The notes: generated by a model not told the origin, from the sequence alone. A stretch of DNA of 64,000 bases from Nitrosopumilus sp. (GCA_965197525.1 OZ240211.1:1568001-1632000), one strand, 5' to 3'; shown: positions 13,619-31,280, numbered from the stretch's first letter. A program made the numbers and translations.

Positions 13619-13655
13619 TTATCTTCTACTCTGTTCAATATTAGGGAGTTTTCAA

Positions 13656-13780
13656 GAGACTGTAAAGTTAGGGATGTAATTATTACAAGTTTTAAGACTG
13701 TAAAATTCGGGAGGTATATCGTGATCTGTTTTGAGACTGTAAAGTTAGGGAGATGACACGTTGTTTGGCTTGAGACTGTT
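13656..13780 (+). repeat. Subterminal array of 19-bp GAGACTGTAAAGTTAGGGA motifs (left end)
   Basis: Copies at 13656, 13694 (degenerate), 13733 and 13772 (partial); 38-39 bp period. Confidence 0.85.
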
Positions 13781-13832
13781 ACACTGTTAAAAACACGTCT
13801 TCTTTATAATATAGCCTGATGAGTATTATCTT

Positions 13833-14705
13833 ATGAAACAAATTTCTATTATGATATTAGGTATCATAATAACAGGATCTATGTTTACAGTTTATGCTAT
13901 AGATCAGGCAACAGCACAAGAAAAATTAATTCCAGATTGGATAAAAGGCACTGCTAGTTTTTGGATTAATGATGATATCACAGATTCTGAATTTATACAA
14001 GCTATTGAATTTATGGTCAATAATGGAATAATTAAAATTCCAATGATTCAAAATCTTGAAAATGAATTATCAGTATCAAAAAACAAGATTATAGAGTTAG
14101 AAACGAATACATCAGAATTAAAAACATATACTAGCGTATCTAAAACAACAAAAGATTTCTTAACTTTCAGCGATAAGATTTATGAATTTGGGGATGATCG
14201 TGCCAAAATTGAATATGAAACTCTCATTAAATGTAAATCTGTTGATAATAATTTAAAATTTCTTGAATTTACTAAATGGTTATCATATTATACTAACTAT
14301 ACAGATGATTTGACAATACAGGTTGAGGAACTTACAGAATCATTTGAATCTATATCCATCACTGACGTAACACCAGAAGAAAAGGTTATGCTAAAATATC
14401 TATATGATGAAACTAATCTAATAAATGGTATACACTACAGTGAACTTCAATTTTCCATATATGATGAATTATTAACATGTTTAAATGAAGTTGAGAATAA
14501 ATTTCTAAAAAATCCCAATACACTCACAAATCCAACAACACAAACATGTAATTTGTTTTGTGATTCAAGAGGGTATGAACCACAATGGGCTAAATCAATA
14601 AGTGAAGAAACTGCTTTCAACACATGTATTGATACTATTCCATTAGATAATAGCCCAGACTCTTTATGGTGTGATGAGTTCATTGAATATCTAGTGTTAG
14701 GTTAG
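13833..14705 (+). CDS. Secreted/surface protein with thaumarchaeal IPxWIK domain and C-terminal Cys-rich domain
   Basis: Signal peptide; IPDWIKGTASFWINDDITDSEFIQAIEFMVNNGII; C-terminal CNLFCDSRGYEPQWAK...C...WCDE. Confidence 0.8.
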   Translation: MKQISIMILGIIITGSMFTVYAIDQATAQEKLIPDWIKGTASFWINDDITDSEFIQAIEFMVNNGIIKIPMIQNLENELSVSKNKIIELETNTSELKTYTSVSKTTKDFLTFSDKIYEFGDDRAKIEYETLIKCKSVDNNLKFLEFTKWLSYYTNYTDDLTIQVEELTESFESISITDVTPEEKVMLKYLYDETNLINGIHYSELQFSIYDELLTCLNEVENKFLKNPNTLTNPTTQTCNLFCDSRGYEPQWAKSISEETAFNTCIDTIPLDNSPDSLWCDEFIEYLVLG

Positions 14706-14954
14706 ATATCATCCCTTTCATTTTTTAGGATTTTGAAGAAATAATATCACTGTAAATATGAATACTATTCTTGATGCTATTATTCCTATAGTTATCTTGA
14801 CGACCTATATGATGCGTTAGAGTTGTTACAACTTCTTTGAACCAAGTTGAAATATTTACAAAAGTATCATTTTTGATTAACCACAATTTGTTGTTAACAT
14901 TGGTTACTTTACTGAAAATGTCATTTTTCGCTAACTAAAATACTCTAAAATGAT

Positions 14955-15566
14955 TTACTTTGGCGGCCTCTTACCGTCCATATATTCGATACACCAAGAG
15001 TAGTCTCGATCTTCAGTTATTAAGATGTCTAACATACCTCTATCTGAGTCTTCAATATAGGCAAAACATGTAAACTCGATAACACGCTCAGACTGTCCTT
15101 TGGCCCAGTCCGGTTCCCAGTCTCGTATAATTGATGGTACATTTTTCAATGCCTCTTCATACTCTCGTGCTTCTAGCTCTCTCTCTTCTAGCTCTCTCTC
15201 TTCTAGCTCTCTCTCTTCTCGCTCCCGCTCCCGCTCTTGTGCATACTCTTCATCATAAAATGGATATACAATTACTATAATAACAAACAATAACATTATG
15301 ACAATTATTAACAAACCTGCGATCCATGAATTTGATAGTTTGGCAAACCATGATAATCTATAGAATACGTAAGTACTCAATAATGATATGAGCCAAGTGG
15401 TCATCATGAAGACCGACACATAATCTTTTGAATCAAATGTAAAAATATCGGGTTGAATGGAATGTATATGTATTACATTAGACCCCATAACTGTAGCTAC
15501 CGCAAACGCAAGCAGAAATTTCAAAAATCCACTTTGATGTTTTTCTTCTGCTGTATGAGGAAGCAT
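14955..15566 (-). CDS. Membrane protein with Glu/Arg-rich linker and partial Cys-rich domain
   Basis: Three hydrophobic segments; ERELE repeats (15-bp DNA repeats); WEPDWAK...C...YSWCIE. Confidence 0.75.
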   Translation of the reverse strand: MLPHTAEEKHQSGFLKFLLAFAVATVMGSNVIHIHSIQPDIFTFDSKDYVSVFMMTTWLISLLSTYVFYRLSWFAKLSNSWIAGLLIIVIMLLFVIIVIVYPFYDEEYAQEREREREERELEERELEERELEAREYEEALKNVPSIIRDWEPDWAKGQSERVIEFTCFAYIEDSDRGMLDILITEDRDYSWCIEYMDGKRPPK

Positions 15567-15609
15567 AAATCAAAAAAATGTACCAATTATTTAAAAATTT
15601 AGAAGTCAT

Positions 15610-15748
15610 GGTTCTGTTAACTTGATGAGTGGTAGTTTACCATATGATATTATTGACATCAATTAATACTATAACAGGCATAATCCTACATCAGCGTTAT
15701 ACTCATCCCAGTACAACAACACATAACACCCGTCAAGTTAACAGAGCC
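15610..15748. mobile_element. 139-bp MITE-like element with IS6-type 16-bp TIRs
   Basis: GGTTCTGTTAACTTGA ... TCAAGTTAACAGAGCC (15/16 inverted match); no 8-bp TSD. Confidence 0.65.
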
Positions 15749-15875
15749 CATCTTTTTGAAACCTCAAACACTTTTTTGCAATCCATTATCTCACCGTTTA
15801 GGCGTTTCATCTTGTTGCTGTCACGATCTCTCTTCCCTGTAATGTAAACATGTCTAATATAATTTGTCTTCTTTT
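15749..15875 (-). pseudogene. Decayed IS6-like transposase fragment
   Basis: Minus-strand translation ...DSNKMKRLNGEI... resembles the NNKMERxNGE catalytic-Glu region of archaeal IS6-type transposases. Confidence 0.4.
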
Positions 15876-15968
15876 CAAAACTAAAAAACAGTTTTACACA
15901 AAATAATTTTTACGCCATATCCACATTATTAGACAGGACCCAAATCACCCCAAGCGTTTTTAAAAACA

Positions 15969-16199
15969 TTACTTTATCTTTTGTGTCTTCTTTAACAACT
16001 CATGAGTCATTCCAATCATAACAAATGCTCCGCCAAACAACCCGGCTATAATCCCATATAACAAATTGCCTGTCAACCAGTCCACCATGCATATAAATAG
16101 CAGTATACTAACGAACCCACTAACTAACACTATTACTGCAATACCTACTAGGCTTCCAATACTATTAGCTGTATCATCAAAGGCAGGCATGGCAAACAC
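15969..16199 (-). CDS. Small two-TM membrane protein
   Basis: 76 aa with two hydrophobic helices and a basic tail. Confidence 0.5.
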   Translation of the reverse strand: MFAMPAFDDTANSIGSLVGIAVIVLVSGFVSILLFICMVDWLTGNLLYGIIAGLFGGAFVMIGMTHELLKKTQKIK

Positions 16200-16283
16200 T
16201 GGAATTGATGCAATATTAAAGTATGAGACATAAACAAAAAGCGTTTCTTTGTTGATTAAAAGTGCTAAATAGTATAGATCAAG

Positions 16284-17312
16284 ATGTATTCTATCAGAAA
16301 AATGAAACTAATTGTCATTGTAATAATTGGGTTAATTATTGTAATCGGAGTACCGATATCACTGATATCATTTTTCATCTATGATGCAGGGCTTAAGGCC
16401 GAGAAGAAAGAGGCAGAATGGCAGGAAAGGGTTGAGGCACATAGGCTTCAAGAAGAGAAACAAGCAGCAGAGAGGTTAGAGGCAGAGGCTGTAGCAGAGA
16501 GGCAAGAGAGGTTAGAGGCAGAGGCTGTAGCAGAGAGGATAAAGGTAGAAAAAGCAAGAGAAAGTGAATCAATCTGTCATGATGAAATAATTAAAGAAAG
16601 AATAGAACAGGCTATCGTTCTTAGTAATCGATTCTATCAAGCGTGTGAACCTGTCCAATATGGATCATATAATGACTTTGTTATATTTTCTGACAAAATG
16701 CAGACTGTTGAAAATCAGATAAATCTTCAAACAAGTTTTCAAGCAATAAATGAAAGCATACTGGACTTGATTATCACAGTTGAAAACAACTGTCAGTATA
16801 CAGAAATACGTGACATAGGTATTGATCTAAAATATGACTTTATTGTAATGAGTTTATGCTTTGAAGAAGTGTATGAGCAGTTTGGAGAATTTCCAGGTAT
16901 GGAATTAGGGGTATGGGATAACGATCATAATCCTCAACATAATACAAACAATAGCCAATGTCATATATTTTGTGATTCAAGAGGATATGAACCCGATTGG
17001 ATAATATATCAAGAAGATCTAGATGATCTTCTAACAACGTGTGTAGATGATGTACCGTTGGATAATAGCCGAGATTCGTTATGGTGTGATGAATTATATG
17101 AATATGCACTTTCGCCAGGCGGAGTTTCCAGCGATTCTAATAGCCAATGTCATATATTTTGTGATATTTACGGATATGAGCCACAATGGGCCAAATCAAT
17201 GGATGTTTATCAAGCAGCTGGAGTATGTATGTCAATCTTTAATAATTCTGAACAGGCAAGTGATGATGATCTATCATGGTGTTATGAACTTGCAGGATAT
17301 CTAGTGGAATGA
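16284..17312 (+). CDS. Membrane-anchored protein with coiled coil and two C-terminal Cys-rich domains
   Basis: N-terminal TM; ERLEAEAVAER duplicated; two copies of QCHIFCDxxGYEPxW...C...WCxE. Confidence 0.8.
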   Translation: MYSIRKMKLIVIVIIGLIIVIGVPISLISFFIYDAGLKAEKKEAEWQERVEAHRLQEEKQAAERLEAEAVAERQERLEAEAVAERIKVEKARESESICHDEIIKERIEQAIVLSNRFYQACEPVQYGSYNDFVIFSDKMQTVENQINLQTSFQAINESILDLIITVENNCQYTEIRDIGIDLKYDFIVMSLCFEEVYEQFGEFPGMELGVWDNDHNPQHNTNNSQCHIFCDSRGYEPDWIIYQEDLDDLLTTCVDDVPLDNSRDSLWCDELYEYALSPGGVSSDSNSQCHIFCDIYGYEPQWAKSMDVYQAAGVCMSIFNNSEQASDDDLSWCYELAGYLVE

Positions 17313-17441
17313 TGTTAATCAAAAATTTAGGCTGTGATTTTGTAAAACGTTTTACAGTGTAAAACATCAACAAATGCGTTTTTTTGTTGATAATTGTCAA
17401 ACAACTCCATAAAAAGTGGAATTAAACAAATTACATAATAA

Positions 17442-17489
17442 TACACTGTTCCAAATTAGAGATATTTCCAGACACTGTTTAATTAGGGA
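17442..17489 (+). repeat. Solo degenerate copy of the 48-bp TIR
   Basis: TACACTGTTCCAAATTAGAGATATTTCCAGACACTGTTTAATTAGGGA; 37/48 ungapped identity to the left TIR. Confidence 0.7.
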
Positions 17490-17566
17490 CATATACACGG
17501 TCTATTTTAAAATCATTAAAGAAAGCCAAACTAATAACAAGATAAAACATGTTATAAAAAATAGAT

Positions 17567-17833
17567 ATGACGCGCAAACTGATACTCGCACTGCCAATCG
17601 GCATCCTGGTTTGCGCGGCTGCGATATTCTCGATTGAGGAACCGTCTCCAAATCCTTATCTGATGGAACCGGGAAGTTATGCAGGGCTACAATGTTGTAA
17701 CAATCATGAATGCTACGTCGCTCATGACATAGAATGGATGTCCCTTGAAACACATGAGTGTATTCCAAGAGCAGGTGCGGACAAACAACCCATACCCGAC
17801 GAATGGATTTGGCGTGACGATCTTTTAAAATAA
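17567..17833 (+). CDS. Small secreted Cys-containing protein
   Basis: 88 aa; hydrophobic N-terminus; CCNNHEC...C. Confidence 0.55.
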   Translation: MTRKLILALPIGILVCAAAIFSIEEPSPNPYLMEPGSYAGLQCCNNHECYVAHDIEWMSLETHECIPRAGADKQPIPDEWIWRDDLLK

Positions 17834-17856
17834 TATCTGAAAAATTATAGATTCTA

Positions 17857-18098
17857 TCAGATATTCCCCATCACATACTCTAACGCAACTCTAAACTCGT
17901 CTAGGGTTATCTGTTTTTTTATTACCAGTGGTGCAAGATCAGTCATGACCCAGGCAGGTATGTCTTCTCCCATGTGACTCAGGCCCATGGCATCCAGCAG
18001 CTGGCCGTCGTCTGCCACCTCGGACTCAAATCCAGACCACGCGCGCAGTACGGACAATGCGCGGTCATAATCTGAGTCATCATCAAAAGTCTCAATCC
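17857..18098 (-). pseudogene. Orphan C-terminal fragment of a large Nitrosopumilaceae surface protein
   Basis: RIETFDDDSDYDRALSVLRAWSGFE...DIPAWVMTDLAPLVIKKQITLDEFRVALEYV; in-frame TAG immediately upstream and no start or signal peptide. Confidence 0.6.
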
Positions 18099-18125
18099 GC
18101 TATTGGCTTTTCCTAAACTTCTTTT

Positions 18126-19550
18126 TTATTCCTTATTTGTGCAAAGAATATTTTGTGCATTGGAAACAATTCTATTTGCTTCTTCTTGGCAGTATTCCAA
18201 TAAAGATTTGTCTAAAATCTGGATGAAATCGGACTTGGACATATCCATAGTAACTGATACAACAAGTGCTATCCTTAGAATTTCCAATAATTCTTTGATA
18301 AAAGCATCCGGTCCACCATATTTTTTTAGTTTTTCCTCGTCCTTAGATCCAATACAATCGCCATGAACAAATTTACTTCTTATAGTATAGGCATCTTTTA
18401 TCTTGTCTCTTACATTCAGTTGATCTTTACCAAGAAACTTCATAAGGCTTGCGACTCTTAATGACAGCCTGAATGATAACTCCCCACTATCTTGTTGGAG
18501 AAATATACTTTCAAGCCCCATTACAGCATCAGCAATTTTTCGATCTGTAGAACTATTTTTCAGGCAGTCTACATATCTGTTGTAGGCTATTGTAGCAAAT
18601 TTATCTTTTTTTGATAAAGTGTTAGATATTTTTTTAGCATTGTCTTCAAGTGAAGAGAAAAATTTTTTCAAGCATTCTTTATCTGATTGTCTAACGAGGT
18701 AAGTGTGGGCTGCACGTGAATTATCTAACGTTTCTATGTTCATTCCCCCACCCCCAAACCAAGGATCCATTATAACAGAATGCATTTTAAAACGAATATG
18801 TCTGATACTTCCTACACGGAATAATCTTAATATGGATATTATATGTTTAATTCTATTTATTAATTCTATATCAGTTTTGGCATACATCTCCACATCAATA
18901 ATGGCAGTAGGATATTGTTTAGAAACATCACAATCCGCAGGATATGCGGGAAAGTTTTCATTAATGTCCTTTTCAGAAGTTTGCCGAATTTTTATTCCAC
19001 ATCCTAGATTAATAGACGGTTCTTGTAATATTATACCAATCAGTTCTACAGTAGCATAACATGGAAACTTCTCTCCTTTAAGATGTTTTAGTGCATCAGA
19101 TACAATTTTTTTAATTTCTTCACTAGTCCATTCATGCTTGAATGCAGATAGCATAAAAAGTCGTAAAGATACATCAACTGTGTTTTTTGGTAGTTGATAG
19201 TTGTCCAAAATTAATTTTTCAAGCTCTAACACTCGTGGTGATTTTAAAAAATGCTGTGTAACAGTCATATGTAAATCCGACCAATATAAAATAGGATTTT
19301 CTTCTTGTGTCATATTTGTAATTGTTATACCATTATTATGGACACCAGAATCATCATATGTAAAATTACTTACAGTCCATCGATATTGGGAATCCATACT
19401 GTTTGTTTTCAAAGTATCATCGTTTTTGCCATTTTTGATAATCCCAACTATTTCTGTTAAGATTTCAACAAATAATTGATGAACTAGATTGTCCACAGAT
19501 GAAGAAGCCATATGATAAAGTGTTGTATGCTTTACATATATAGAAATCAT
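18126..19550 (-). CDS. ApeA-like HEPN domain protein (candidate antiviral RNase)
   Basis: C-terminal GLESIF...ELSFRLSLRVA...YTIRSKFVHG with an Rx4H motif; probable start ATG 19511. Confidence 0.75.
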   Translation of the reverse strand: MISIYVKHTTLYHMASSSVDNLVHQLFVEILTEIVGIIKNGKNDDTLKTNSMDSQYRWTVSNFTYDDSGVHNNGITITNMTQEENPILYWSDLHMTVTQHFLKSPRVLELEKLILDNYQLPKNTVDVSLRLFMLSAFKHEWTSEEIKKIVSDALKHLKGEKFPCYATVELIGIILQEPSINLGCGIKIRQTSEKDINENFPAYPADCDVSKQYPTAIIDVEMYAKTDIELINRIKHIISILRLFRVGSIRHIRFKMHSVIMDPWFGGGGMNIETLDNSRAAHTYLVRQSDKECLKKFFSSLEDNAKKISNTLSKKDKFATIAYNRYVDCLKNSSTDRKIADAVMGLESIFLQQDSGELSFRLSLRVASLMKFLGKDQLNVRDKIKDAYTIRSKFVHGDCIGSKDEEKLKKYGGPDAFIKELLEILRIALVVSVTMDMSKSDFIQILDKSLLEYCQEEANRIVSNAQNILCTNKE

Positions 19551-19834
19551 TCTTTTCTACTGTTCTGTTAACTTGTTGAGGTATAATTCCTCGTGTTAAC
19601 TGTAGAAGGGTGTTTTTTATAGTCAATTGCGAATCGCATATAACTTGTCATTTAAATCTGCATACGGATTGTTAATCTGCCCTTCCGACATACTCTTTTT
19701 TTCTAATTTATATTCAATATTATCTAGATTCTTGATCACATCCATTATACCTTGAATTAATCAATAATGTTTGCAACGGTATTTCATAATCTCTTGCGAC
19801 TAATAATTATATGTGGTTTTATTGACGGATTTTT

Positions 19835-20998
19835 GTGTTTGGAAAAAACCTAGATGATGTAACTTATGATGACATAATCAAACTGAAAGAAAGAAAAATA
19901 GATGAAAGTGACATTTTAGATTACAAGATAGACTTTCAAAAAGAGGATGAGATCATAAAACATGTTTGTGCCTTGGCTAACACTCGTGGAGGATACTTGA
20001 TCTTTGGAATAAAAGCATCAAAGGATGGCGGACATCCAACAGAGATTAGAGGAATGGAGAATAACAAGATACATAAAGAAAAAATTGAAAATTTAATGCT
20101 GTCTAACATAGTTCCACGTTTGGACATCAAAATAAAAACAGTTGCAGTACCAGATACAGAAAATTCAATTTTGCTTGTACAAGTTCCTGACAGTTACAAC
20201 AAACCACACTATAATCAGAAGAACAATAAATTCTACAAACGATACAACTTTCAATCTAATGAAATGACAGAACAAGAAATTGCAGATTCCTACAGGAGAC
20301 GTTTTTCATCACATGATCAAGTTGAGCAATATGTGAATCGTTTGTTTAGAAAACAAAAGACGTCTTCCCTTGTTGAGAGCATCATAGTTATTCCGTCAAA
20401 TATAGAACATAGATTAATCGACACATTTGACCGCACAAAGTATGAATGGTTGGGAGATATTTCGCTAAAACATAGTTGGGGACCGCGTGCAAATCCAAAT
20501 AACTTTTTTCCGTCTAGTCTACGACCTTTTGCCGATGGACTTTATAGTAAGAATGGAGAAACACAAAGAACAGAGATTCATAGAAACGGCTGCATTTTTT
20601 ATACATCTGTCCATGAACAGTTACTCTATAATAATTTGAAAGCCAGATCTAATGACAACGATTATTATAATTTACTGTCTGGAGTATATGCAGTTAAAAC
20701 AATGCATACACTCCAAGCCGCATATCAGATCATGTCTCATTATAACTACCTCGGCGAGGTAAAGATTATTGCGAGAATTGTTTGTCCTCCTCACACTCAA
20801 TTACTTTTTAAGGATAATAGGCTTATACGCCTCTCTCAAAACTTAATCATTCACATAGAAAAGATGTTCTCATTACAACACATCAAAACCAATTATCAAG
20901 AGATTACCGCAGATGTTATGCATGAAGTAGTAAACCATTTTGGAGTAGAAAGATGTGAGTTATTTGATACAGAGGGACAATGGATAGAAGATTGCTAA
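19835..20998 (+). CDS. Schlafen AlbA_2 domain protein
   Basis: IDESDILDYK, VCALANTRGGYLIFGIK, KPH...FYKRYNFQS motifs. Confidence 0.85.
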   Translation: MFGKNLDDVTYDDIIKLKERKIDESDILDYKIDFQKEDEIIKHVCALANTRGGYLIFGIKASKDGGHPTEIRGMENNKIHKEKIENLMLSNIVPRLDIKIKTVAVPDTENSILLVQVPDSYNKPHYNQKNNKFYKRYNFQSNEMTEQEIADSYRRRFSSHDQVEQYVNRLFRKQKTSSLVESIIVIPSNIEHRLIDTFDRTKYEWLGDISLKHSWGPRANPNNFFPSSLRPFADGLYSKNGETQRTEIHRNGCIFYTSVHEQLLYNNLKARSNDNDYYNLLSGVYAVKTMHTLQAAYQIMSHYNYLGEVKIIARIVCPPHTQLLFKDNRLIRLSQNLIIHIEKMFSLQHIKTNYQEITADVMHEVVNHFGVERCELFDTEGQWIEDC

Positions 20999-21051
20999 TG
21001 AATTTTTGACAGGTCAATATGATTACTGACTATCTCTTGAGATTTTAAAAA

Positions 21052-21339
21052 TTAAGGTCTAACGTGATTTAACACTACTTTTTTACCATGTAGATCTTGG
21101 TTATGACAAAAATCAACCTGAAAATTAAAACCACAGTTAACACATAGAAAACCTGGCGTTGAGTTAGGTAATGTGTCGGCACATTCTGCACCGCATAGTA
21201 AACAATTCATCCCATGTGGGTCATACCATACCTCTGTTTTGCCGTCATCAGATACTTGATACCAATATCCTTGAGGAACTTCAAGTTGTCGTTCATGTCT
21301 TGTGACACCTTTTAGTGTCTTGTAGGCTGTAACCTCCAT
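21052..21339 (-). CDS. Small Zn-ribbon protein
   Basis: CLLCGAEC...CVNCG. Confidence 0.55.
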   Translation of the reverse strand: MEVTAYKTLKGVTRHERQLEVPQGYWYQVSDDGKTEVWYDPHGMNCLLCGAECADTLPNSTPGFLCVNCGFNFQVDFCHNQDLHGKKVVLNHVRP

Positions 21340-21460: not shown

Positions 21461-21800
21461 TCAAATGCACAAGTTTGCATATTCCTCAACCTTACTACGA
21501 CCAATCATATGTGTATCGTTTTGATTACCAGAAGGTCTAGGACACAGTAACAACCAACGCTGTATCCGATTATGCCTCTGACATTTTGGCGGTTCTAAAA
21601 CTGGCAGATTCATTCTTTTCATGTCATGTTTGTTAATTCCGGTAACTAACACACCATTTGGTTTTAGCATTTGTGCAATATTTTGTAATATTTTTTTCTT
21701 AGATTTCATATCAATATAACGTATAACGTTCAGACAGATTATAATATCAAATTGATTTTCATATTTTAACTGCTGCAAGTCAGCACAGATAAATTCTACT
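21461..21800 (-). pseudogene. C-terminal half of a class I SAM methyltransferase (CheR-like)
   Basis: VEFICADLQQ...FDIIICLNVIRYI...LKPNGVLV; SAM-binding motif I is missing, and the fragment abuts the 509-aa gene. Confidence 0.6.
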
Positions 21801-21806
21801 CCACTG

Positions 21807-23336
21807 TTATTTTTCAGGGTTAGGATCAGAGGATATATTAGAATTGTGTCGAATATGAATATCCGTTTGCTTGAGGAGTTTGACTATGTCATTCCTTAAC
21901 GGATTAACCCTCCTGTCGAAACCAGTAGTTTCATGCGCATCACTCTCGATCACACACTTGCCGTAACCGTCTGGACATATGGCAATGTGTCCATTCCATT
22001 TGCTGTCATTTGGAAACTTGAGCCGAATAATGACTGCATTTTTATCGTTTATCGAAATGTTTGCGATCGGATCCTCAAAAGTAGCACACATACTTCGGAT
22101 GCATGGATCCGCATGCCATGCAGAGCTTGCAGCCTCTATATAACGCGTCCCGGAAAGTCTCCCTGTTCCAGTAATGCCGCCAATTGAGTCCCTAAGGGCA
22201 TCGAGAGCTGCGTAGGTCGTTACTGCTTCGTATAAGTCAGATGGTAATTTTTCAAGATCGCAGGTATTCGGAGTGATAGGTGTAGCCGGATCGTTCGCTA
22301 AATCCCTGATAGTTGAGTTGAGCGAAGATTTGGTCCGTAAAGAGTCGAGGAGTTGTGGTCCATACGCTTCTTTGACCGTTGACTTGGAATTGCGTTCATC
22401 AAGCACCTTTTGTGGACTTGAAGATTTCTCTGGAGATAGAACATCTGGCATGATTTGAGGGGTAAACCATCCGTGGCGTCCTTGCATTGCTTCCAGCATT
22501 GCTGATGAAACGTCTAGATCAACAGTGTCTTTTGCAGGTTCTTTGCTAGTCATTATCGCAAAGCGATATTCGCGTTGGTCTTGAAATCTGCGGTCTTTTA
22601 TAAAAAGTGGTAGTAACGTAAATGCAGTTTCCGTGGTTGAACTAAATATTACATCATATGGACCATCTGCATAAACTACGGGGCCATGATAGATAACCTG
22701 CCCTTTGTGCTTTGTGTTGAAAGTAGAATTATTACCAAAAGTGTGACGCATGGAGCCGTTATCACCCTGAGGCCCACACTGTTCTGCCACCATGGAGCCA
22801 AGAACCCGAGCAAATTCCCGCGGATGGCGTATGTATGAGGTATGGTCGTACTCACGCACAGATTCTTGCCACTTGTCTTTGTCACTCTGATTTGTTGGTT
22901 CGATTGAAGTGCAGAATATCCATCCACTCTTATCTGAAGTTAACGATTCTGTTGTCGTGGGTGTGATTTTGCCATCATCTACTCTATGTCTACTTGGTGT
23001 TTCCATTGGCTCTGATGCTAGATCAGATTTGTTATTGGCAGATTGTGCTCTTAGAGCACTATTCTGTTCGTTTAGTTTCCCGGAAGGATTAGTGCTAGAT
23101 TGTTTTGCTTCAGCAGTATCACCGATCAGACCTTTTTCGATATTCCTAAATACTTTCGGTTTAGATAAGTGTATTTTATTACATCTTTCAATTGCATACC
23201 GTTCATCACATCCTTTGATCAGTGTTGTGATTGGTACACGGTCAGATGGACGCCGAAAATCTACATATATTACCAGGATAAGATTGCCAGCGTTATCTAC
23301 ATGAAAACCTTCGGACATCAGAAAGGGCTCACACAT
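21807..23336 (-). CDS. Hypothetical 509-aa protein of atypical composition
   Basis: Long ORF; GWIFCTS, HGPVVY and KDRRFQDQREYRF motifs; visibly more GC-rich than its flanks. Confidence 0.75.
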   Translation of the reverse strand: MCEPFLMSEGFHVDNAGNLILVIYVDFRRPSDRVPITTLIKGCDERYAIERCNKIHLSKPKVFRNIEKGLIGDTAEAKQSSTNPSGKLNEQNSALRAQSANNKSDLASEPMETPSRHRVDDGKITPTTTESLTSDKSGWIFCTSIEPTNQSDKDKWQESVREYDHTSYIRHPREFARVLGSMVAEQCGPQGDNGSMRHTFGNNSTFNTKHKGQVIYHGPVVYADGPYDVIFSSTTETAFTLLPLFIKDRRFQDQREYRFAIMTSKEPAKDTVDLDVSSAMLEAMQGRHGWFTPQIMPDVLSPEKSSSPQKVLDERNSKSTVKEAYGPQLLDSLRTKSSLNSTIRDLANDPATPITPNTCDLEKLPSDLYEAVTTYAALDALRDSIGGITGTGRLSGTRYIEAASSAWHADPCIRSMCATFEDPIANISINDKNAVIIRLKFPNDSKWNGHIAICPDGYGKCVIESDAHETTGFDRRVNPLRNDIVKLLKQTDIHIRHNSNISSDPNPEK

Positions 23337-23818
23337 AGTAAATCTGTGTGACTGACAGAATTATAAATCAAGTGTTGTACGGGGTGTCATTCAAATCTCA
23401 GTTCTACAGATCGTAACAGGCTAGATTACCCGGAACGCTTCTGTCAGTTTTTCAAACCAATTCAATTCCTGATTACCCCACGTGAGTAGGCACGTCATTA
23501 TGGTGCCGAACATGATCTTTCCTATGACATCTACAAACTGCTGGCGTATCTCTGTTTGTTTCGCACATACGTTAGTTTTCATGTTCGGAGCCTAACTGCG
23601 ATTAACCCTAATGAATTGGTAAGAATGGTACTGAGTGATAGAGCTCGTATAGATATGTGTCCAACCATCTTCTTGGCGAAACACTGTTCCCAGCTGATGC
23701 CGTACTCAAACACACAAAAATCCAGAAAATCTTTAAAAAGAGTGCACATAGATATTCTTTTAGCTATAAGACTAATGATATCAGCACATCTATAAACTGT
23801 CATGTGTTTTGAATTCGC

Positions 23819-24214
23819 GTGCAGTATTCCAATTGGAATGATTTTGAAAAATTTCATCAGAAATCTACACGATTTAGTCGCAACACTATGGCTACAATGG
23901 GATTTGGTTATGGCGGTGCTAGTCCGGAAGCTAAATGTGCCGTGTTCTCGCTGTTATATATAAAGATGGTTGGGACGTTCCACAATAAAATAATAGATTA
24001 CTGTAGTCGCAACGAAATAAAAACTAAGAACAAACCCTTACGCATATTGTTGGACAAGATAAAAGAACATAATGTGATAAATTTGAATTTTGCAGAATTA
24101 GAATGCATACTCAGTAAGCGCAACAGTATAGCACATGAGCCTGATTTCCTTATATCCGAGAGTACGTTTGAGATGGATAAAAAAACACTGTTTGCTGAAT
24201 ATTCGAAATTATAG
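23819..24214 (+). CDS. Small stand-alone HEPN-like protein
   Basis: KRNSIAHE (Rx4H) near the C-terminus of a 131-aa helical protein; TTG/GTG-type start uncertain. Confidence 0.5.
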   Translation: MQYSNWNDFEKFHQKSTRFSRNTMATMGFGYGGASPEAKCAVFSLLYIKMVGTFHNKIIDYCSRNEIKTKNKPLRILLDKIKEHNVINLNFAELECILSKRNSIAHEPDFLISESTFEMDKKTLFAEYSKL

Positions 24215-24428
24215 TTAGGATCACAAATTCGTGTGGATTAATTCAGTTTTTTTGTTTATGTATTTAATCAATTTCAGATTGAATCATACTAGATAATATG
24301 TCGAGATGGCCATATATAGTTGGGGTCAAAAAGTTTCGATCATTGAATCTTATACTCCACGTAGCCAACATGAGCCGAATTTTTTGACTCCTATGCATTA
24401 TTGGAGCACATGCACGAGTTCAGATAAC

Positions 24429-24809
24429 TTAATGATACGACATACCGCTACTAGTGCGACGTAATATTCTAATGTAATTAGATAGTGGTTCTGAACATCT
24501 CTTGCAAAAGGTTGCTGTAGAACCTATTATTCTAACTTCTTTTACTGTTAATGGTTCAAATGTATCTAGGAACATAAGGCAATATGTCTGCACGCCAATA
24601 CAATCAATACCGCATGTAATACATATGCCATCTCCAAACTGTTGTATGACACGTTTGACATAATCAAAAAGATCCACCGTACATCTATTGCAAAATAAAA
24701 TACCGGTTCCGTCAAGATTCTTTACATTCAATGGCTTCAACGTAGTAGTTTCAAACAAATAACTTTTAGGTTCATTCCCGCATTCTGTGTCACAAATACC
24801 ACATTTCAT
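24429..24809 (-). CDS. Duplicated zinc-finger protein
   Basis: CGICDTEC...FCNRC and CITCGIDC...FCKRC; two homologous halves. Confidence 0.65.
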   Translation of the reverse strand: MKCGICDTECGNEPKSYLFETTTLKPLNVKNLDGTGILFCNRCTVDLFDYVKRVIQQFGDGICITCGIDCIGVQTYCLMFLDTFEPLTVKEVRIIGSTATFCKRCSEPLSNYIRILRRTSSGMSYH

Positions 24810-25533
24810 GCTATCACTATTCCGTTGATCATATAAATTGACTATAAGAGTTCATCGTACTGCGGTTTTGTCTAGTCAAAGTCACGAGGATGTTCTTCTC
24901 AACGTACGTGATATAAAATCTAGTGTCTGTCTGCATTCATATTTATTGATACAGATCGACCTTGGTAATGCATCAACTGGCTATAGTAACGCATATAAAT
25001 TTGCGCAGTCTTACCTGTAGCCAATTTCTTTGATTAGGTTATCATGATATGGTTGTAGGCACCATCGTGCATGGAAATGTATGTATTTTCTTCAAAAAAT
25101 AATGTTTAGGTGTACGAACTTATGCTTTTAGATGTATGTTTGTAATTATTCCATTCATGACGTTTCGCGGAATCGTTCTGGACCACCTGTATCTGGGAAG
25201 AATCCGGAGACTTTTGAGATCTCCATCGTAGTAACGGTACAGACAGTCGCAGATCCACGTGAGACAGTGTACCGGGATGTTGACAGTCCATCCACGGACA
25301 TGTCAAGGACTCGTACCATGCAAACGACGACTATTTTGATTTGAACCTTAGTCATCCTTCTTGCGTGCCTTTTCGAGTTCTTCCCGTTTTGTATCATCCA
25401 TGCATCTTTGAGATGAGATCTGATCTACAAACTTTTCAATTAATTATACGCAAACTTTGACGCGTCGATATAGGCACGTTTGAAGAGGTTGTGTGACTAG
25501 CTACATTTTGTAGAAAATTTTTACGCTAACTTT

Positions 25534-26469
25534 TCATTCTTGGTACAGTTCGGAGTATTTGGCAATCCACATAACAGATGCTTGGCTAAGACCAGTCAAC
25601 CACTTTAGTTGCGCGTGGGTGTGTTCCGGTTGTACGGGTTGAACAAATTTGGGCGGCCTGAGTGAACAGCCGAGTTTTACGGCAAGTTGGTCAAATTCGG
25701 CTAACAATTCATCCATATTATCCCCTTTTTTCTTGAGTTTTTCCTCCGGTGTATTACTCAGTGAGTGTGAGCCCATATTACGGGTTCTTCGTATGATGTC
25801 TACTGCGGCAAAGAATAGCTCGGCATCTGATCCCCAGCACTCATCGCTTTTGACCTTGTCCTTAAATTTGCACATTTTATTGTACATGGAACGCTCGTTC
25901 CACGTACCCATCATCTTGTCAGCATAATGCTCAATTGCCTGTAACATTGTGAGGAATAAACCACGCCATGCCGAAAGGTCATCGCGCCTCCTGATGTGAG
26001 CATGGATCAGACAGATCCCATATATGGAGAATTTATTGCCAGAACATAATGGTAGTACGTTAAACGGTAGAACCGGCGTAGGGATGTCATCTATACCATA
26101 CCACAACACATCCCAGTTCAGCATCAATCCATGGAATATTGCAGGTATGTTCTGTATTAAATAATCGGCATCCGCAAAGCGGGCAGATTTACTGCCCACT
26201 ATGACCACATCCACATCCAGAATGTTTCTAGGATCCAAGCCTAACTCATGTTCAATGTTAAATCCCATGCCTTTCAGGAATTGAACAATCTGATTCATTT
26301 CATAATGCATGTCATCCAGATCCGTGCTAATATGCAGTATGTTTACATACCTGGATCTGACTCTGTTGCGTCCTGTACACCGAAACATCTCAATACGAAA
26401 GTCCGCCATTGAATGGACGAATTTCCCCCAATCAAGTCTGGAATCAAACTTTGGTGTATTGGTAGTCAT
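25534..26469 (-). CDS. Hypothetical protein with C-terminal HEPN-like motif
   Basis: IIRRTRNMGSHS (Rx4H). Confidence 0.6.
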   Translation of the reverse strand: MTTNTPKFDSRLDWGKFVHSMADFRIEMFRCTGRNRVRSRYVNILHISTDLDDMHYEMNQIVQFLKGMGFNIEHELGLDPRNILDVDVVIVGSKSARFADADYLIQNIPAIFHGLMLNWDVLWYGIDDIPTPVLPFNVLPLCSGNKFSIYGICLIHAHIRRRDDLSAWRGLFLTMLQAIEHYADKMMGTWNERSMYNKMCKFKDKVKSDECWGSDAELFFAAVDIIRRTRNMGSHSLSNTPEEKLKKKGDNMDELLAEFDQLAVKLGCSLRPPKFVQPVQPEHTHAQLKWLTGLSQASVMWIAKYSELYQE

Positions 26470-26514
26470 GTAGCATCACACATGATTTAGATGACTCCAA
26501 GTATTATTCATATG

Positions 26515-27089
26515 TTAGTCAACAGGTGACATACTGTGGAATATGAAAAGTAATTACCCCCAAAAAAACTCCCCTTAAATAGAATTCAGTTATACAAATA
26601 ATGGAAACGTTGTGTTTGTTGCAAAAAATAAAAATAGAGATGTTTTGTTTTAAGATGTTTTTCAAACACAACAAACACAGCGTTTTCCAAACAACGATAA
26701 ATACAAACAACGATAAATACAAACAGTTGCCAGTCAACTGGATATTTTTTATTTAATGAAATAATTAGACATGTTTTTGTAGTCTGTGTTTATCATTTGC
26801 CTAAAAACCACCAAAAAAAGTGGCTTAAATAGAATTCATTTATCAAATAATGAAGATGTTGTAGTTTGTTATAAAAAATTAATAAGTTTGTTTGATGTCA
26901 ATACTTTTTGGTTTTAACCATAAAATAACAAATACAACATCTTCAAAATAACTATAAACCCAAACAGTTACTAGTCAACTGTATATTGATGAAGATACAC
27001 ATATTTTTAATAATCTTTAATTATTGTTTGTAATATATCCAAAAAACCCCAAAAAAAGTGGCTTATATACTATTCAATATTCTATAAAC
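26515..27089 (+). promoter_or_regulatory. Triplicated promoter-like unit (palindrome plus BRE/TATA) with two long hairpins
   Basis: CTTAAATA at 26574 and 26824, CTTATATA at 27062; CAGTTRCYAGTCAACTG at 26724 and 26965, partial at 26515; hairpins 26603-26688 and 26852-26944. Confidence 0.7.
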
Positions 27090-27650
27090 ATGAACATTTT
27101 AAAATGTTTACCAAAAAATGACCTCTTTACGCCACGTCAACGAAGACGAGCAGTATCAGGTCCAATTGTCGCAATTCTGATTATCGTTGTAGCAATTGCA
27201 ATTGTCGCAATTTTGATAGGTACAACTACTGATTTGATAGGTACAGCAAGTATTGTTGATTCAGTTGATCTTTCCAAGCAGACACTGTATGCAAAGCAAG
27301 AATTTGCCAGTATTACTGTGAAAAATAGTGGTACTACACCGATAGAAGATATTCAAGCATATTTGCTAATTACAAGTGACAGTGATTGTGGAAATGAGGG
27401 TACTTATAGAGCCTCAATTGGTGTAAATACTCTTACAAATGGTACTAAGGTTGTACAAGAGATAGAAGAACTAAATCCTGGTCAATCAGCAACAATTAGT
27501 GGTGATCTCTATCAAACTGATACTACCACTGGTATTGATTGCACTGGTACTAATAATATTGATGATCGAAAAGAATACATCATTCAAGTAGACGGTACGG
27601 GTGAAGGTACTCAAGAAACATCATTCACAACAACTGTCCGTTCTAGATAA
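27090..27650 (+). CDS. Archaeal type IV pilin / archaellin-like protein
   Basis: Class III signal peptide RQRRRA|VSGPIVAILIIVVAIAIVAIL; SITVKNSGT Ig-like motif; ATG 27090 lies 28 bp after the TATA box (leaderless). Confidence 0.85.
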   Translation: MNILKCLPKNDLFTPRQRRRAVSGPIVAILIIVVAIAIVAILIGTTTDLIGTASIVDSVDLSKQTLYAKQEFASITVKNSGTTPIEDIQAYLLITSDSDCGNEGTYRASIGVNTLTNGTKVVQEIEELNPGQSATISGDLYQTDTTTGIDCTGTNNIDDRKEYIIQVDGTGEGTQETSFTTTVRSR

Positions 27651-27751
27651 TCATAGATAGGACAATCAACATTTTTTTATTTTTTATTTAATGGAATGAC
27701 ATTTTTGTATTATTCTTTGTAACGCAGTGCCACATGCGCCCCCTTTCTCTT

Positions 27752-27820
27752 AAATTTTTTCATCCTAATTTTCGATTTTTAGATGAAATTTTTTCATCCT
27801 AATTTTCAAAATTTAGATGA
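27752..27820. repeat. Two tandem 34-bp imperfect palindromes
   Basis: ttttcatcctaattttcRaWWtttagatga twice (catcc at 27761 and 27795). Confidence 0.65.
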
Positions 27821-28214
27821 TTTTTTGTGGATTATATTGATGGGTTACATAGGCTTAAACTCAGACTCTGTTAACCCATCGAAACTTTTAGGCATTTTTA
27901 GTGACTGTGATCTAAAACACTCTACACGGTGTCTACGCTTGGCAAACATCAACAAGAATGTAATCCCAAACATCATGAGTAATGTAGAAATGGAAGATAG
28001 GTGGATTGATGTGTGGACAATACTATTACAAAAAACTCGACGAATGTTATTTGGTAGAAAATATTTAGGTAAACATACATTTGGATTGGCCTTCACATTT
28101 GTAGTCATGCTATTGTTTTCATCCCTGTCTCTTTTTTCTACAATGTGAATATGATTTGTCTTCTTTTCAAAACCAAAAAAGACATTTTATATAAAACGGA
28201 ATCGTAACCGACGT

Positions 28215-29597
28215 ATGGACTCTAGAAATAAGAAAGCAACGTTGATTTTCTCAGAACATAATCCAATAAAAAAGATAACAAAGAATCACTACACTGTAGA
28301 ATCGCAAACCTCAGATAATACATACAATGTTAGAAAAATGCCAAAATCTGATGTATGGACTTGTGAATGTAGTGATTTTCACTTTAGACTGAGAAAATCA
28401 GATGACAAACACTGCAAACACATCAAATCTTGTATTTTAGTGGTAAATTCTATAAGAATACATCGCAGAATAGAAAAAACTGACATGCCAAAGGTTTGCT
28501 CAGCGTGCTATTCTAATGAAATTATTAAATCTGGATTTAGAACACTAAAGAATGGAACAAAGAGACAGCGTTATGAATGCAAAAAATGTAACAATAGGTT
28601 TATTCTAGGTGAGAATGGATTTTCAAAGGTAGAAACAAATCCCAAAATAATCTCAGAATCCATCAATTTAGTCATGTCAGGAATGTCATATAGAAGTGTT
28701 GCAAGACATATTGAGACATCACGTCAAATCAAGATTAGTCATACGTCTGTAAATAGTTGGATAAAAAAATATACCATTCTAATCAAGGAATATGTAGATA
28801 CTCTTGTTCCTAATGTATCTGATGTATGGTCCTTGGATGAAATGTACCTAAAGGTTAAAAACACAAAAAAGACAGGCAAGGGATTCCATGATTGGTTATG
28901 GAATATAGTTGACCCCAAGACTAGATTTTTGATAGCTACAGAAGTATCAAAGAGAAGGGAAACTAGTGATGCAAGAAAAATTATCGCTAGTGGAAAGCGT
29001 ATTGTTTCACAGAATAATAGACCAAATTACGTTCTAACTGACTCTCTACACGCTTATGAAAAGGCGATAAGAAAAGAGTTGGCAAATCGTACTGCTCACG
29101 TCAAAACCAAGTCTCTCAAAGATGGTTTTGTTAACAGGCCTGTTGAGAGATACCATAACACATTTCGTGAAAATTTAAAGTCAAGACGCGGACTAGGAAA
29201 TGATGAATCTGCACAGAGATTTTCTGATTTACATAGAATACATTATAATTTTACAAAACCACATCAAGGATTAGACGGTAAGACTCCAGCTCAAGAAGCT
29301 GGAATTGATCTTAAATTAGGTCATGACAAGTATAGGGATTTAATCAAGTTAGCAGGAACTAAACCAAACTTTGTAAATAATTTGGGAAAGAGAATCGATA
29401 AACTATCAATAATTCATGAAGGCGACTGTATCAAAATTTCAACTAAAGAGTGGATTGACAAAAAAATCTGGAGAGAAATTAATGATATTCTAAGCCTTCA
29501 CAAATTTAGCTGGTTATCTAATGGTAAGGACAGTTGTTGGATTAGAATTAACTCTTTGCCAATAATACAAAAAGATAAAGACGATAACCAAGACTGA
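28215..29597 (+). CDS. IS6-like DDE transposase with N-terminal SWIM and Zn-ribbon domains
   Basis: WTCECSDF...CKHI; CSAC...CKKC; HTH MSYRSVARH; DDE in WSLDEMY, LTDSLHAY and VERYHNTFRE; frame intact. Confidence 0.85.
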   Translation: MDSRNKKATLIFSEHNPIKKITKNHYTVESQTSDNTYNVRKMPKSDVWTCECSDFHFRLRKSDDKHCKHIKSCILVVNSIRIHRRIEKTDMPKVCSACYSNEIIKSGFRTLKNGTKRQRYECKKCNNRFILGENGFSKVETNPKIISESINLVMSGMSYRSVARHIETSRQIKISHTSVNSWIKKYTILIKEYVDTLVPNVSDVWSLDEMYLKVKNTKKTGKGFHDWLWNIVDPKTRFLIATEVSKRRETSDARKIIASGKRIVSQNNRPNYVLTDSLHAYEKAIRKELANRTAHVKTKSLKDGFVNRPVERYHNTFRENLKSRRGLGNDESAQRFSDLHRIHYNFTKPHQGLDGKTPAQEAGIDLKLGHDKYRDLIKLAGTKPNFVNNLGKRIDKLSIIHEGDCIKISTKEWIDKKIWREINDILSLHKFSWLSNGKDSCWIRINSLPIIQKDKDDNQD

Positions 29598-29673
29598 AAA
29601 ATCCTAAAATACTATCACCTATATGCTCATTTATATCAGAATTTAGATTTAAGCAGAGATTTACAATAATAGA

Positions 29674-30624
29674 TTAAGGACAACTCCGACATTTGCCCTC
29701 TATAAATGGTCTTCTTTTAAGATCATCTTTGATCTTTTCTAATTCATTCTTAAAACAATCTAACTCTGTTGAGATATTATAGTATTCAGATCCATACTCG
29801 CTGTAGGATTTTTTCAATGAATCATCATTGATTATCTCTGTTACTAACTTCTTGTATTTCTCAAAATCTATCTCGCTATCAGACCCCATGTGAAAACCAT
29901 TAGGTTTCCACTTTGAATAAATTACTTTGTGTTCATTTGATTTATTATAATATAAAGATTTCAGAGCATGTTCAGAAAAACCATTAACATTTTTGAAATA
30001 ATCTATTATAAATTGTCGAATATTTGATATGTCGTAATATTTTAATTCAGTGACTCTATTTTCAAAGTCAGAAAAACACTCATCCATTTTTTCTTTTATC
30101 TTGTCTTCCAGAATTTCCGCAATACTGGTTTTGCTGTCGAGTTCGTCCAACATGGTTTTTACTTTTTCCCAGTGTTTGTAGATGTGCTTGTATTTATCCT
30201 TAAGATGCTCTATTGCAGAGTCATAATAGAGATAAGCAGATTCAGATTTCAACTGGTCTTCATATAATGTCTCAGGCAGTATGCCTTCCTCCAAGTCGTG
30301 ATAATAGTGGGGGCTATCTGGGTAGTATTCCTTTGGGAATTTGATAAAGTATTTCCACCGTTCTTCCCCTCTACCGTGATCAAGTTCAACAAGTGTAAGC
30401 ATTTTGTAGACTTCATTTATGGATTTTGTATGTTCTTTTTTCTCACTGCGTGGTACTTCATTTCCGAAAAAGAACTTCTTAAGAATTACTAGCAAAAATC
30501 CCACGCCCACAGTTCCAATAATTGGTGTAATTGACTTGCTTTCATCTGGTAATATTATAGGCAATAATAGAGCTACTGATATAACTAGGATTGCACTTAT
30601 GAACCAGATATACCTTCGTCGCAA
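29674..30624 (-). CDS. Membrane-anchored hypothetical protein
   Basis: 316 aa with two N-terminal hydrophobic helices. Confidence 0.75.
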   Translation of the reverse strand: MRRRYIWFISAILVISVALLLPIILPDESKSITPIIGTVGVGFLLVILKKFFFGNEVPRSEKKEHTKSINEVYKMLTLVELDHGRGEERWKYFIKFPKEYYPDSPHYYHDLEEGILPETLYEDQLKSESAYLYYDSAIEHLKDKYKHIYKHWEKVKTMLDELDSKTSIAEILEDKIKEKMDECFSDFENRVTELKYYDISNIRQFIIDYFKNVNGFSEHALKSLYYNKSNEHKVIYSKWKPNGFHMGSDSEIDFEKYKKLVTEIINDDSLKKSYSEYGSEYYNISTELDCFKNELEKIKDDLKRRPFIEGKCRSCP

Positions 30625-30718
30625 TTCTTAACCTGTTCGTCATTATTTTGTCAATATATAACCATTATAACATTCAATTTTATACCCCTATCACGACAAC
30701 TAAGCAGACACCAAATTT

Positions 30719-31081
30719 TTAACAGAATGTAAACGGGTGGCCTACCTTTCCACAGTTCATCTTATCAAGCCCCTGCACCATGAGCTCCTCGTTTATCTGA
30801 AGCATAAACAACTTGCCGCGATCTATGTATTTGCGGTTATCATACTGGAGTCTGCATTCGTTTGAACTGTAAGATTTTTTAGTACCATGCTTGCCTAGTT
30901 TGTCTGGAGAGGATGTGTTTTTGGTCATGATTGATAGTCTGATTGACAACGCACCTCTCTGTTCAATACAGTTTTCTATTGAAAGTGTTTGATACAACGT
31001 TCAAATTCAGTTGTTCTATGCCTAATCTGATCTGATTTTGGATTAGTTAGGCGTGGTTGATGATAATTAGGAAACAGAGTT
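30719..31081 (-). pseudogene. IS5-family remnant: left end plus transposase N-terminus
   Basis: End AACTCTGTTTCCTAA (31081-31067, minus strand), then YDNRKYIDRGKLF...KMNCGKVGHPFTF, resembling archaeal IS5-type N-termini; truncated. Confidence 0.55.
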
Positions 31082-31174
31082 CCGAAAAAGAACTTCTTAA
31101 GAATTACTAGCAAAAATCCCACGCCCACAGTTCCAATAATTGGTGTAATTGACTTGCTTTCATCTGGTAATATT
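31080..31174. repeat. Exact 95-bp copy of 30462-30556
   Basis: ttccgaaaaagaacttcttaag...catctggtaatatt in both places, offset 618. Confidence 0.92.
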
Positions 31175-31176
31175 GT

Positions 31177-31280
31177 AACTTGTAATAATTACATCCCTAA
31201 CTTTACAGTCTCACGCCAAATACCCTGTCACCTCCCTAACTTTACAGTCTCTTGAAAACTCCCGAATATTGAACAGAGTA
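31177..31280 (-). repeat. Right TIR with subterminal 19-bp motifs
   Basis: TCCCTAACTTTACAGTCTC at 31194-31212 and 31233-31251 (39-bp period); 31177-31193 is the reverse complement of 13675-13691. Confidence 0.9.

Follow-up and report, generated by a model that had tools for sequence, protein, structure and literature searches.

A putative cargo-carrying unit transposon with multi-site ends and a distant IS6-type transposase in a Nitrosopumilus genome

A 17.65-kb element and its family

The stretch of DNA analysed here (referred to as the window; 64,000 nt) corresponds to positions 1568001-1632000 of the 2.21-Mb single-contig genome of Nitrosopumilus sp. (GCA_965197525.1 OZ240211.1), and coordinates below are window positions unless marked as genome positions. 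Positions 13627 to 31280 form a 17.65-kb element enclosed by long inverted repeats, with a transposase gene (P0001) toward its right end. The features delimiting this element, together with its transposase, are the following:

13619..13626 (+): left copy of the 8-bp target-site duplication, TTATCTTC
13627..13677 (+): left terminal inverted repeat, tip TACTCTGTTCAA
13631..13750 (+): left-end array of four direct 14-nt sites (13631-13644, 13660-13673, 13698-13711, 13737-13750)
28215..29597 (+): transposase P0001, 460 aa, with a SWIM finger, zinc ribbon, helix-turn-helix, DDE core and C-terminal alpha/beta domain (residues ~385-447)
31195..31276 (-): right-end array of three direct 14-nt sites (31263-31276, 31234-31247, 31195-31208)
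31230..31280 (-): right terminal inverted repeat
31281..31288 (+): right copy of the duplication, TTATCTTC

The two inverted arms (13627-13677 and 31230-31280; 51 nt each) were 96% complementary, and their terminal 48 nt were identical at 47 of 48 positions. The 8-bp sequence TTATCTTC abutted both tips as a perfect match, and an 8/8 identity at two such fixed positions is expected by chance only about once in 65,000. Within the ends, a 14-nt subterminal motif, CTGT(T/A)(C/A)A(A/G)(T)T(A/C)GGG, recurred in direct orientation at positions 5, 34, 72 and 111 counted from the left tip and at positions 5, 34 and 73 counted from the right tip, the tips themselves reading TA-CA-CTGTT-CAA and the internal sites CTGTTAA(A/G)TTAGGG. 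The left junction was spanned, with zero mismatches, by a short-read contig of the probable source sample, and no piece bridging the right junction was present among the listed contigs of that sample.

The P0001 open reading frame (ORF) ended 1,683 bp from the right tip and contained the sole transposase domain among the scanned ORFs of the element (at least 70 aa). An earlier description based on the window alone (referred to as the sequence-only reading), which had pointed out the 47/48 repeats, the perfect 8-bp duplication, the repeated subterminal motifs and one intact DDE transposase about 1.7 kb inside the right end, was indeed confirmed on all of these points.

In an alignment of 112 sequences, the SWIM residues C50, C52, C67 and H69, the zinc-ribbon residues C95, C98, C122 and C125, and the catalytic residues D208 and E311 together with R318 were invariant, and D276 was present in at least 90%, a pattern that fits the IS6 DDE triad followed by K or R. 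P0001 matched Pfam PF13610 (DDE_Tnp_IS240) at 57.3 bits (gathering score 27; E 2.5e-15), and its best NCBIfam model was IS6 (NF033587; 105.1 bits, covering model positions 2-202 of 202). It moreover shared 26% identity with ISCpe7 (E 4e-30) across the helix-turn-helix and DDE regions, and its annotated plasmid homologues were all labelled IS6 family or generic DDE transposase. Judged by its sequence, P0001 is a distant IS6-family DDE enzyme to which a SWIM finger, a zinc ribbon and a C-terminal domain have been added. Its AlphaFold model (predicted local distance difference test score, pLDDT, 86.9) displayed an RNase-H-like core resembling those of the ISCth4 transposase, retroviral integrases and TnsB. 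A sequence search of solved structures with P0001 gave no match, and for the C-terminal domain (pLDDT 80) structural comparison brought up nothing informative (best Z 6.0, Foldseek E above 0.007).

Hundreds of P0001 homologues of ~445-450 aa were found (50-96% identical), the named sources being Nitrosopumilus, Nitrosotalea or Nitrososphaera, and an exhaustive profile search resolved three groups: the full-length proteins, a larger set of ~380 aa without the C-terminal domain, and a set of ~280 aa without the SWIM region. The genome itself encodes six SWIM/IS6-like paralogues (~30% identical) with GG-tipped ends, at least one of which constitutes a simple insertion sequence (IS) of 1,972 bp with such ends.

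Loci related to the 17.65-kb element were taken from reference genomes, genomes of the same order and metagenomes, with ends located via profile and de novo inverted-repeat searches. This resulted in 26 elements from genomes and metagenomes of ammonia-oxidising archaea, ranging from 2.4 to 17.65 kb; the window copy is the largest, and the other 25 (2.4-11.6 kb) encode transposases of ~445-460 aa that are 43-96% identical to P0001. Their common layout runs from the left end through cargo, mostly on the opposite strand, to the transposase, which reads toward the right end, sometimes followed by one to three more genes, and the transposase was the only protein cluster common to the elements. Multi-site ends were found family-wide: the first site begins at position 5, the second at 34 or 43 and the third at 55-73, with a fourth in the window copy. 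Family ends span 45-90 nt with 2-4 sites; tips were TA or GA in most elements, and only the most distant member examined (L079, 43% identity) had true GG tips. End similarity rose with transposase similarity (Spearman 0.51, a value reached by 0 of 2000 label permutations), with the caveat that ends and transposase are co-inherited.

Perfect 8-bp duplications of unrelated sequence flanked 17 of the 26 elements, 16 of them besides the window copy. The insertion site of one element (L017) was uninterrupted in two congeneric genomes, and the junction inspected in one of these read as a single CTAGATTT, which is a clean empty site. Two copies within one genome were 100% identical over 4,973 bp, and a 5.9-kb element was 99.9% identical in two genomes in which its left flanks differed. 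Furthermore, one module of transposase plus right end was 99.95% identical in elements with different cargo and left ends, and in a metagenome contig both the transposase (96% identical) and the right end (94% identical) recurred, but the cargo on either side of the transposase was wholly different. The transposase was detected in only 6 of 151 genomes sampled from the order (E <= 1e-100), a patchy spread as expected for a mobile element. The ends described by the sequence-only reading thus pair elsewhere, related ends surrounding homologous transposases in 25 other elements (16 with perfect duplications, one with an empty site), and the SWIM-DDE transposase, whose co-occurrence with the ends it had proposed to test, is the only gene shared by all elements, with ends that co-vary with it. 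That reading had left undecided whether an IS6-like or an IS5-like enzyme moves the element; the shared and co-varying SWIM/IS6-like enzyme is strongly favoured, and no IS5-like enzyme was found inside the element.

Family cargo consists mostly of restriction-modification and other defence genes. The restriction-modification genes comprised type II systems (MvaI/BcnI, HaeIII, EcoRI-type methylase, C5 methylase), type III systems (Res and Mod), type I/IIG systems (N6_Mtase/Eco57I with an S subunit) and type ISP systems with a PLD-SNF2 protein. Genes with a TIR domain (CAP12/Pycsar-like) were located 3' of the transposase in two elements, and in one element a GmrSD-HNH enzyme stood next to a methylase, 5' of the transposase. 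Separately, two elements carried a GIY-YIG nuclease gene (121-122 aa) between transposase and right end (L008, 11349-11717; L044, 1120-1485), which could be part of a restriction system or a transposition accessory. It was considered as a second core nuclease akin to TnsA and rejected, as its presence in only two elements implies that it is not core. A 3.3-kb contig (L014, CBDCPD010000005.1) encoded a transposase of 70% identity and had a right end of the family type. It was assigned to a Dehalococcoidia metagenome-assembled genome, probably through erroneous binning rather than because a bacterium is the host.

We therefore read window 13627-31280 as a complete unit (non-composite) DNA transposon with a single distant IS6-family DDE transposase, at a probability of roughly 0.85. 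Several observations weigh against this. No empty site for the 17.65-kb copy was found among the genomes compared, the nearest being ~78% identical in the flanking dus gene, and matching duplications are missing in 9 of the 26 elements. The copy is atypical for the family in having no intact restriction-modification system, and the nested ends and repeats throughout it indicate that it may be old and no longer mobile. As to the enzyme, the NF033587 score lies below the curated equivalog cut-off of 125, among solved folds the IS256-family ISCth4 transposase comes nearest (template modelling, TM, score 0.30-0.38), and no IS6-annotated transposase chain emerged from sequence or fold searches of the PDB.

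Neighbouring ends at a spacing of exactly 8 bp

Directly left of the transposon lies a miniature inverted-repeat transposable element (MITE) that the sequence-only reading had missed:

13553..13560 (+): TTATCTTA, left flank of the MITE, 7/8 identical to the transposon duplication
13561..13618: 58-bp palindromic MITE with GG-tipped IS6-type ends, GGTTCTGTTAA...TTAACAGAACC, its right tip facing the left tip of the transposon at 8 bp

The left duplication copy (13619-13626) doubles as the right flank of this MITE. With TTATCTTA on one side and TTATCTTC on the other, the 8-mer is therefore present three times when the right copy of the transposon is counted, the odd 8-mer differing by a single substitution, located within the dus stop codon. 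A role of the MITE as a high-copy target was rejected, given that few close copies of it occur in the genome.

This arrangement was not confined to the window. On 12 of the 52 sides, belonging to 10 of the 26 elements, the tip of another IS6-type end faced that of the element across exactly 8 bp, against 0.035 expected per offset from the motif background frequency, and the other offsets from 0 to 30 gave 0 or 1 match each. L079 presented the same triple-8-mer picture with a 23-bp mini-palindrome, and L016 and L059 had facing ends on both sides, these being large-family ends rather than MITEs.

We consider the chances about even that targeted, end-adjacent insertion is the cause of this 8-bp phasing. 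The phasing itself counts against any claim of direction, as the tip-8 bp-tip spacing is symmetrical and compatible with either neighbour arriving first. It would equally suit the converse explanation, in which small GG-tipped MITEs home to transposon flanks, and small non-autonomous elements are often the more mobile partners. However, the 8-mers surrounding the large element in the window are identical and the odd one is the outer flank of the MITE, which weakly favours the MITE having been there first and the large element last, albeit on the strength of a single substitution. Moreover, the neighbours of L016 and L059 are large-family ends. We therefore hold MITE homing to be possible but rather doubtful.

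Building on end-adjacent insertion of the large elements, we tentatively propose, at somewhat less than even odds, that these elements serve ammonia-oxidising archaea as dedicated defence shuttles and use resident IS6-type ends as landing pads with 8-bp precision, and that defence islands grow into phased tandem arrays in which cargo is captured via the outer end of a neighbour. Were this landing-pad proposal true, it would represent a protein-guided mode of homing as yet undescribed among unit transposons, and the phylum would have its first autonomous family of cargo transposons.

In the mechanism that we envisage, several transposase protomers would bind the three or four directly repeated, IS6-inverted-repeat-like 14-nt sites of each end, pair the ends, and then join the 3' tips to the target with an 8-bp stagger, so that all DNA between the ends would travel as cargo (the usual load being a restriction-modification system transcribed opposite to the transposase). 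A transposase bound to a resident end might capture that end as target and make staggered cuts in its 8-bp flank, the resident end here being that of the 58-bp MITE. The SWIM finger, zinc ribbon or C-terminal domain might serve in site recognition or in the capture of end-bound targets. Such an end-adjacent preference would build tandem arrays and ease the capture of new cargo through an outer end, elements possibly growing by using the outer end of a neighbour; the double left end of L044, whose duplication matches the outer one, fits this mode of growth. We also lean towards a replicative component, by analogy with IS6 and in view of the nine elements without matching duplications, and the identical copies within one genome might be another indirect hint of replicative movement. 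Intramolecular replicative inversion was considered for the identical copies L005 and L015 and was rejected, as their flanks failed to cross-match as predicted.

Cargo and surroundings of the 17.65-kb copy

The remaining features of the transposon, and the element adjoining its right duplication, are:

13833..17312: cargo block 1, described from sequence features only; paralogous secreted or membrane Cys-rich proteins (13833-14705 + and 16284-17312 +) and a membrane protein (14955-15566 -)
15610-15748: GG-type palindromic repeat, 139 bp, in cargo block 1
17442..17500 (+): internal solo end of a different subtype, TACACTGTTCC...GACACTGTTTAATTAGGGAC
18126..19550 (-): 474-aa cargo protein, no family match, C-terminal R-x4-H motif (HEPN-like by eye only)
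19835..20998 (+): 387-aa Schlafen/AlbA_2-domain protein (PF04326, 9.4e-22)
21461..26469 (-): cargo block 2; S-adenosylmethionine (SAM)-methyltransferase fragment (21461-21778) and unassigned proteins of 509 aa (21807-23336) and 311 aa (25534-26469)
23418-23762: example of the nested small repeats in cargo block 2
27024..27650 (+): 208-aa protein with a weak archaeal pilin-like (UpsA) match, below cut-off
27783..28148 (+): 121-aa ORF just 5' of the transposase, inside a 96%-identical DNA block common to L030/L031
29674..30624 (-): P0002, 316-aa membrane/coiled-coil protein, no known family
30724..31081: multicopy repeat fragment, with copies 97-100% identical at three other genome sites (100% copy at genome 1064077-1064434)
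31080-31177: 98-bp duplicate of 30462-30559 (5' part of the 316-aa gene), 3' of the repeat fragment
31289..32710 (+): IS110-family insertion sequence, abutting the right duplication outside the transposon; DEDD transposase at 31426-32580

The cargo of this copy includes three R-x4-H proteins (HEPN-like by eye only) and three secreted or membrane Cys-rich paralogues, and PADLOC returned no defence-system match for it. Of the defence-like cargo announced by the sequence-only reading, one Schlafen/AlbA_2 match stood, but the rest amounted to motifs. The solo end at 17442..17500 is, as far as its sequence tells, the remnant of a nested or accreted relative, and the 88-aa ORF behind it has a counterpart of 92% identity in L030. 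P0002 was considered as an accessory gene and rejected on account of its absence from other family elements. A 48%-identical paralogue of P0002 nevertheless adjoins a paralogous transposase elsewhere in the genome: in L003 (genome 583878-585976) it is convergent with a 32%-identical SWIM/IS6-like transposase, so that the pairing recurs. Near the right end, contigs of the probable source sample joined position 30725 to position 31174, which suggests a variant without these 448 bp.

The copy as a whole looks like an old element that may have grown by accretion of nested relatives and small repeats. Taken further, this would make the window copy a dead fossil and a fixed part of the surrounding island, its intact look being a mere coincidence of recent arrival. 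The nested solo ends, small repeats, methyltransferase fragment and partial gene duplication would all suit a fossil, no second copy of the 17.65-kb element was found in the same genome, and most of the related ends present at ~20 other sites in this genome are unpaired relics. Among the other end pairs of the genome, only 95414-96521 has a near-duplication (7/8), and the rest look like relics. Against a fossil stand the 47/48 tips, the 8/8 duplication and the full-length transposase with every invariant residue, as well as the metagenome contig in which a 96%-identical transposase and the same right end are associated with different cargo. We consequently regard a dead copy as unlikely. Two further short pairs of family-type ends, L002 (genome 1260501-1262331) and L001 (genome 590137-591903), had no matching duplications; one of them encloses a different IS110-family transposase (440 aa), and the other a 429-aa secreted protein without a transposase.

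In 6 of 7 congeners, dus was directly followed by a homologue of 43830-44187, indicating that ~30 kb of the window (13562-43830) constitutes a variable island with the transposon at its left edge. A further 1.5-kb insertion was observed at ~44190-45740. The IS110-family element on the right has three other genome copies (96-98% identical), and the flanks of these copies are without transposon ends, so that the adjacency may be due to chance. On its 3' side, a repeat of ~125 bp (32712-32837) has 82-91% identical copies at seven other genome sites, two of which are found a few kb from ends of the family type (near ~827 kb and ~1256 kb). The island also holds a decayed family relative at 37696-38918, in which an end at 37696 (TACACTGTTCAATCTTAATG...) is accompanied by two C-terminal pieces of a transposase on the minus strand (38029-38292 and 38704-38871). 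Copies of the 58-bp palindrome with ~79% identity are present there as well (38861-38918 and 39236-39293). Finally, all that a run labelled as viral metagenome contained was a dus gene of 94% identity and a related transposase, which is silent on packaging.

Affiliation and comparison with known systems

IS256/Mutator-like elements have a SWIM finger and long inverted repeats with several sites, make duplications of 8-9 bp and capture genes, and the family might thus be suspected of belonging there rather than to IS6. Its SWIM motif is invariant, its top structural match is the ISCth4 transposase, and its long ends and cargo resemble Mutator-like elements. However, P0001 scored 67 bits with the IS1 model and 23.7 bits with that of IS256 (cut-off 150) against 105 with IS6, and both the Pfam DDE_Tnp_IS240 match and the labels of its plasmid homologues point to IS6. 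The core of the ends fits the IS6 consensus and the SWIM finger is N-terminal here, while the fold match is limited to TM 0.30-0.38, with no IS6 structure competing. An IS256/Mutator-like affiliation therefore appears improbable. More improbable still is mobilisation in trans by another enzyme (e.g. a ~30%-identical SWIM/IS6-like paralogue), with the 460-aa gene as cargo or nested IS, for although such paralogues exist, at least one of them as a simple IS, and their GG-tipped ends have a similar 14-nt core, no inverted repeats closely flank the 460-aa gene, which is next to the right end in 26 of 26 elements as their sole shared gene with co-varying end subtypes, and other genomes have elements without need of those paralogues.

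A 2019 survey of integrated mobile elements in thaumarchaea recorded passenger-carrying transposons as undetected in archaea, thaumarchaea included (PMC6563490). Judging from its sequences, the present family suggests that a single-gene IS6-type enzyme can move units of 2-18 kb. In these nitrifiers, which are abundant worldwide, such units may be a main vehicle of defence genes, restriction-modification systems included, and may account for some of the islands that vary between strains. The exact 8-bp phasing offers a testable handle on IS6-type target choice, a question shared with the clinically important IS26, and one protein with defined ends is a candidate genetic tool for organisms that now are without any.

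The family differs from Tn7-like and Mu-like elements despite sharing two traits with them. Those elements have asymmetric arrays of transposase-binding sites at their ends and cargo rich in defence systems (PMC8649781), and both asymmetric site arrays and defence-rich cargo are found here as well. Tn7-like elements, however, have a 5-bp duplication, TGT...ACA tips and an rve/TnsB core, in contrast to the 8-bp duplication, the absence of such a tip and the IS6-like core of the present family. No TnsA, TnsB, TnsC/MuB ATPase or target selector was found in the scanned element ORFs, and no second conserved gene family-wide. The scanned ORFs likewise gave no match to casposon Cas1 or PolB; the sequence-only reading had also found that neither Tn7-like elements nor casposons fit. 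No Tn3-type transposase or resolvase domain was present in the element ORFs, and Tn3 elements have 5-bp duplications and ~38-bp repeats, as opposed to the 8-bp duplication here.

Similar in outward form are bacterial restriction-modification units with 26-65-bp inverted repeats, 8-bp duplications and empty sites, described by Furuta et al. 2010 (PMC2853133). These units were chosen after dropping systems linked to mobility genes and represent single cases in Xanthomonas and Neisseria, no archaeal case having survived (PMC2853133). They are without a linked transposase, whereas the elements described here are autonomous units that form a family. The inference of the sequence-only reading, a unit transposon whose ends hold several sites and whose type may be undescribed, stands, and no prior description of this family of 26 was found in the literature searched (ISfinder lay outside that search). 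The element is not, however, outside the known superfamilies: its tips carry a modified form of the IS6 end as catalogued (cTGTt...caa), which makes it an elaborated IS6 relative.

The IS6 family is indeed the nearest known system. Its members have ends of 15-20 bp with a GG tip, cTGTt and caaa motifs and 8-bp direct repeats, and IS26 prefers insertion beside another IS26, according to a 2021 review (PMC7986276). Shared with this family are the IS6/IS240 DDE signature, the basic residue seven positions past the E, the 8-bp duplication and the single transposase gene. The IS6 end core cTGTt followed by caa/aagtt is also present here, and the ISCpe7 core TCTGTTA(A/G)GTT matches the internal sites. 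With IS6-like cores in both tip and internal sites, and with GG tips in L079, each end is best read as an array of IS6-type repeats. Where an IS6 end is one 15-20-nt repeat with a GG tip, the ends here measure 45-90 nt with 2-4 sites and mostly TA or GA tips, and where IS6 elements are small (0.7-1.8 kb), have no passenger genes and carry cargo between two directly repeated IS copies (pseudo-compound), 1-15 kb are carried here within one end pair. The transposase is about twice the IS6 length, with a SWIM finger and a C-terminal domain, and the hosts belong to the Nitrososphaerota. The targeted reaction of IS26 makes no duplication, whereas the presumed end-adjacent insertions here, which would be the counterpart of that IS26 preference, keep an 8-bp duplication.

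Within IS6, clade i comprises three bacterial ISfinder entries (Halanaerobia, Thermoanaerobacter) whose transposases measure ~450 aa and have a zinc finger as well as an extra extension at the N-terminus, and ISDsp3 is the one member recorded with a single passenger gene (PMC7986276). Both differ from the present family in being 1.7-kb bacterial insertion sequences or in carrying that single passenger gene, the likeness being judged by description only. Based on sequence comparison, the element may thus be regarded as IS6-type by its catalytic signature, duplication length and end core, and as lying outside the IS6 definition by its end length and tip, its size and its carriage of cargo.

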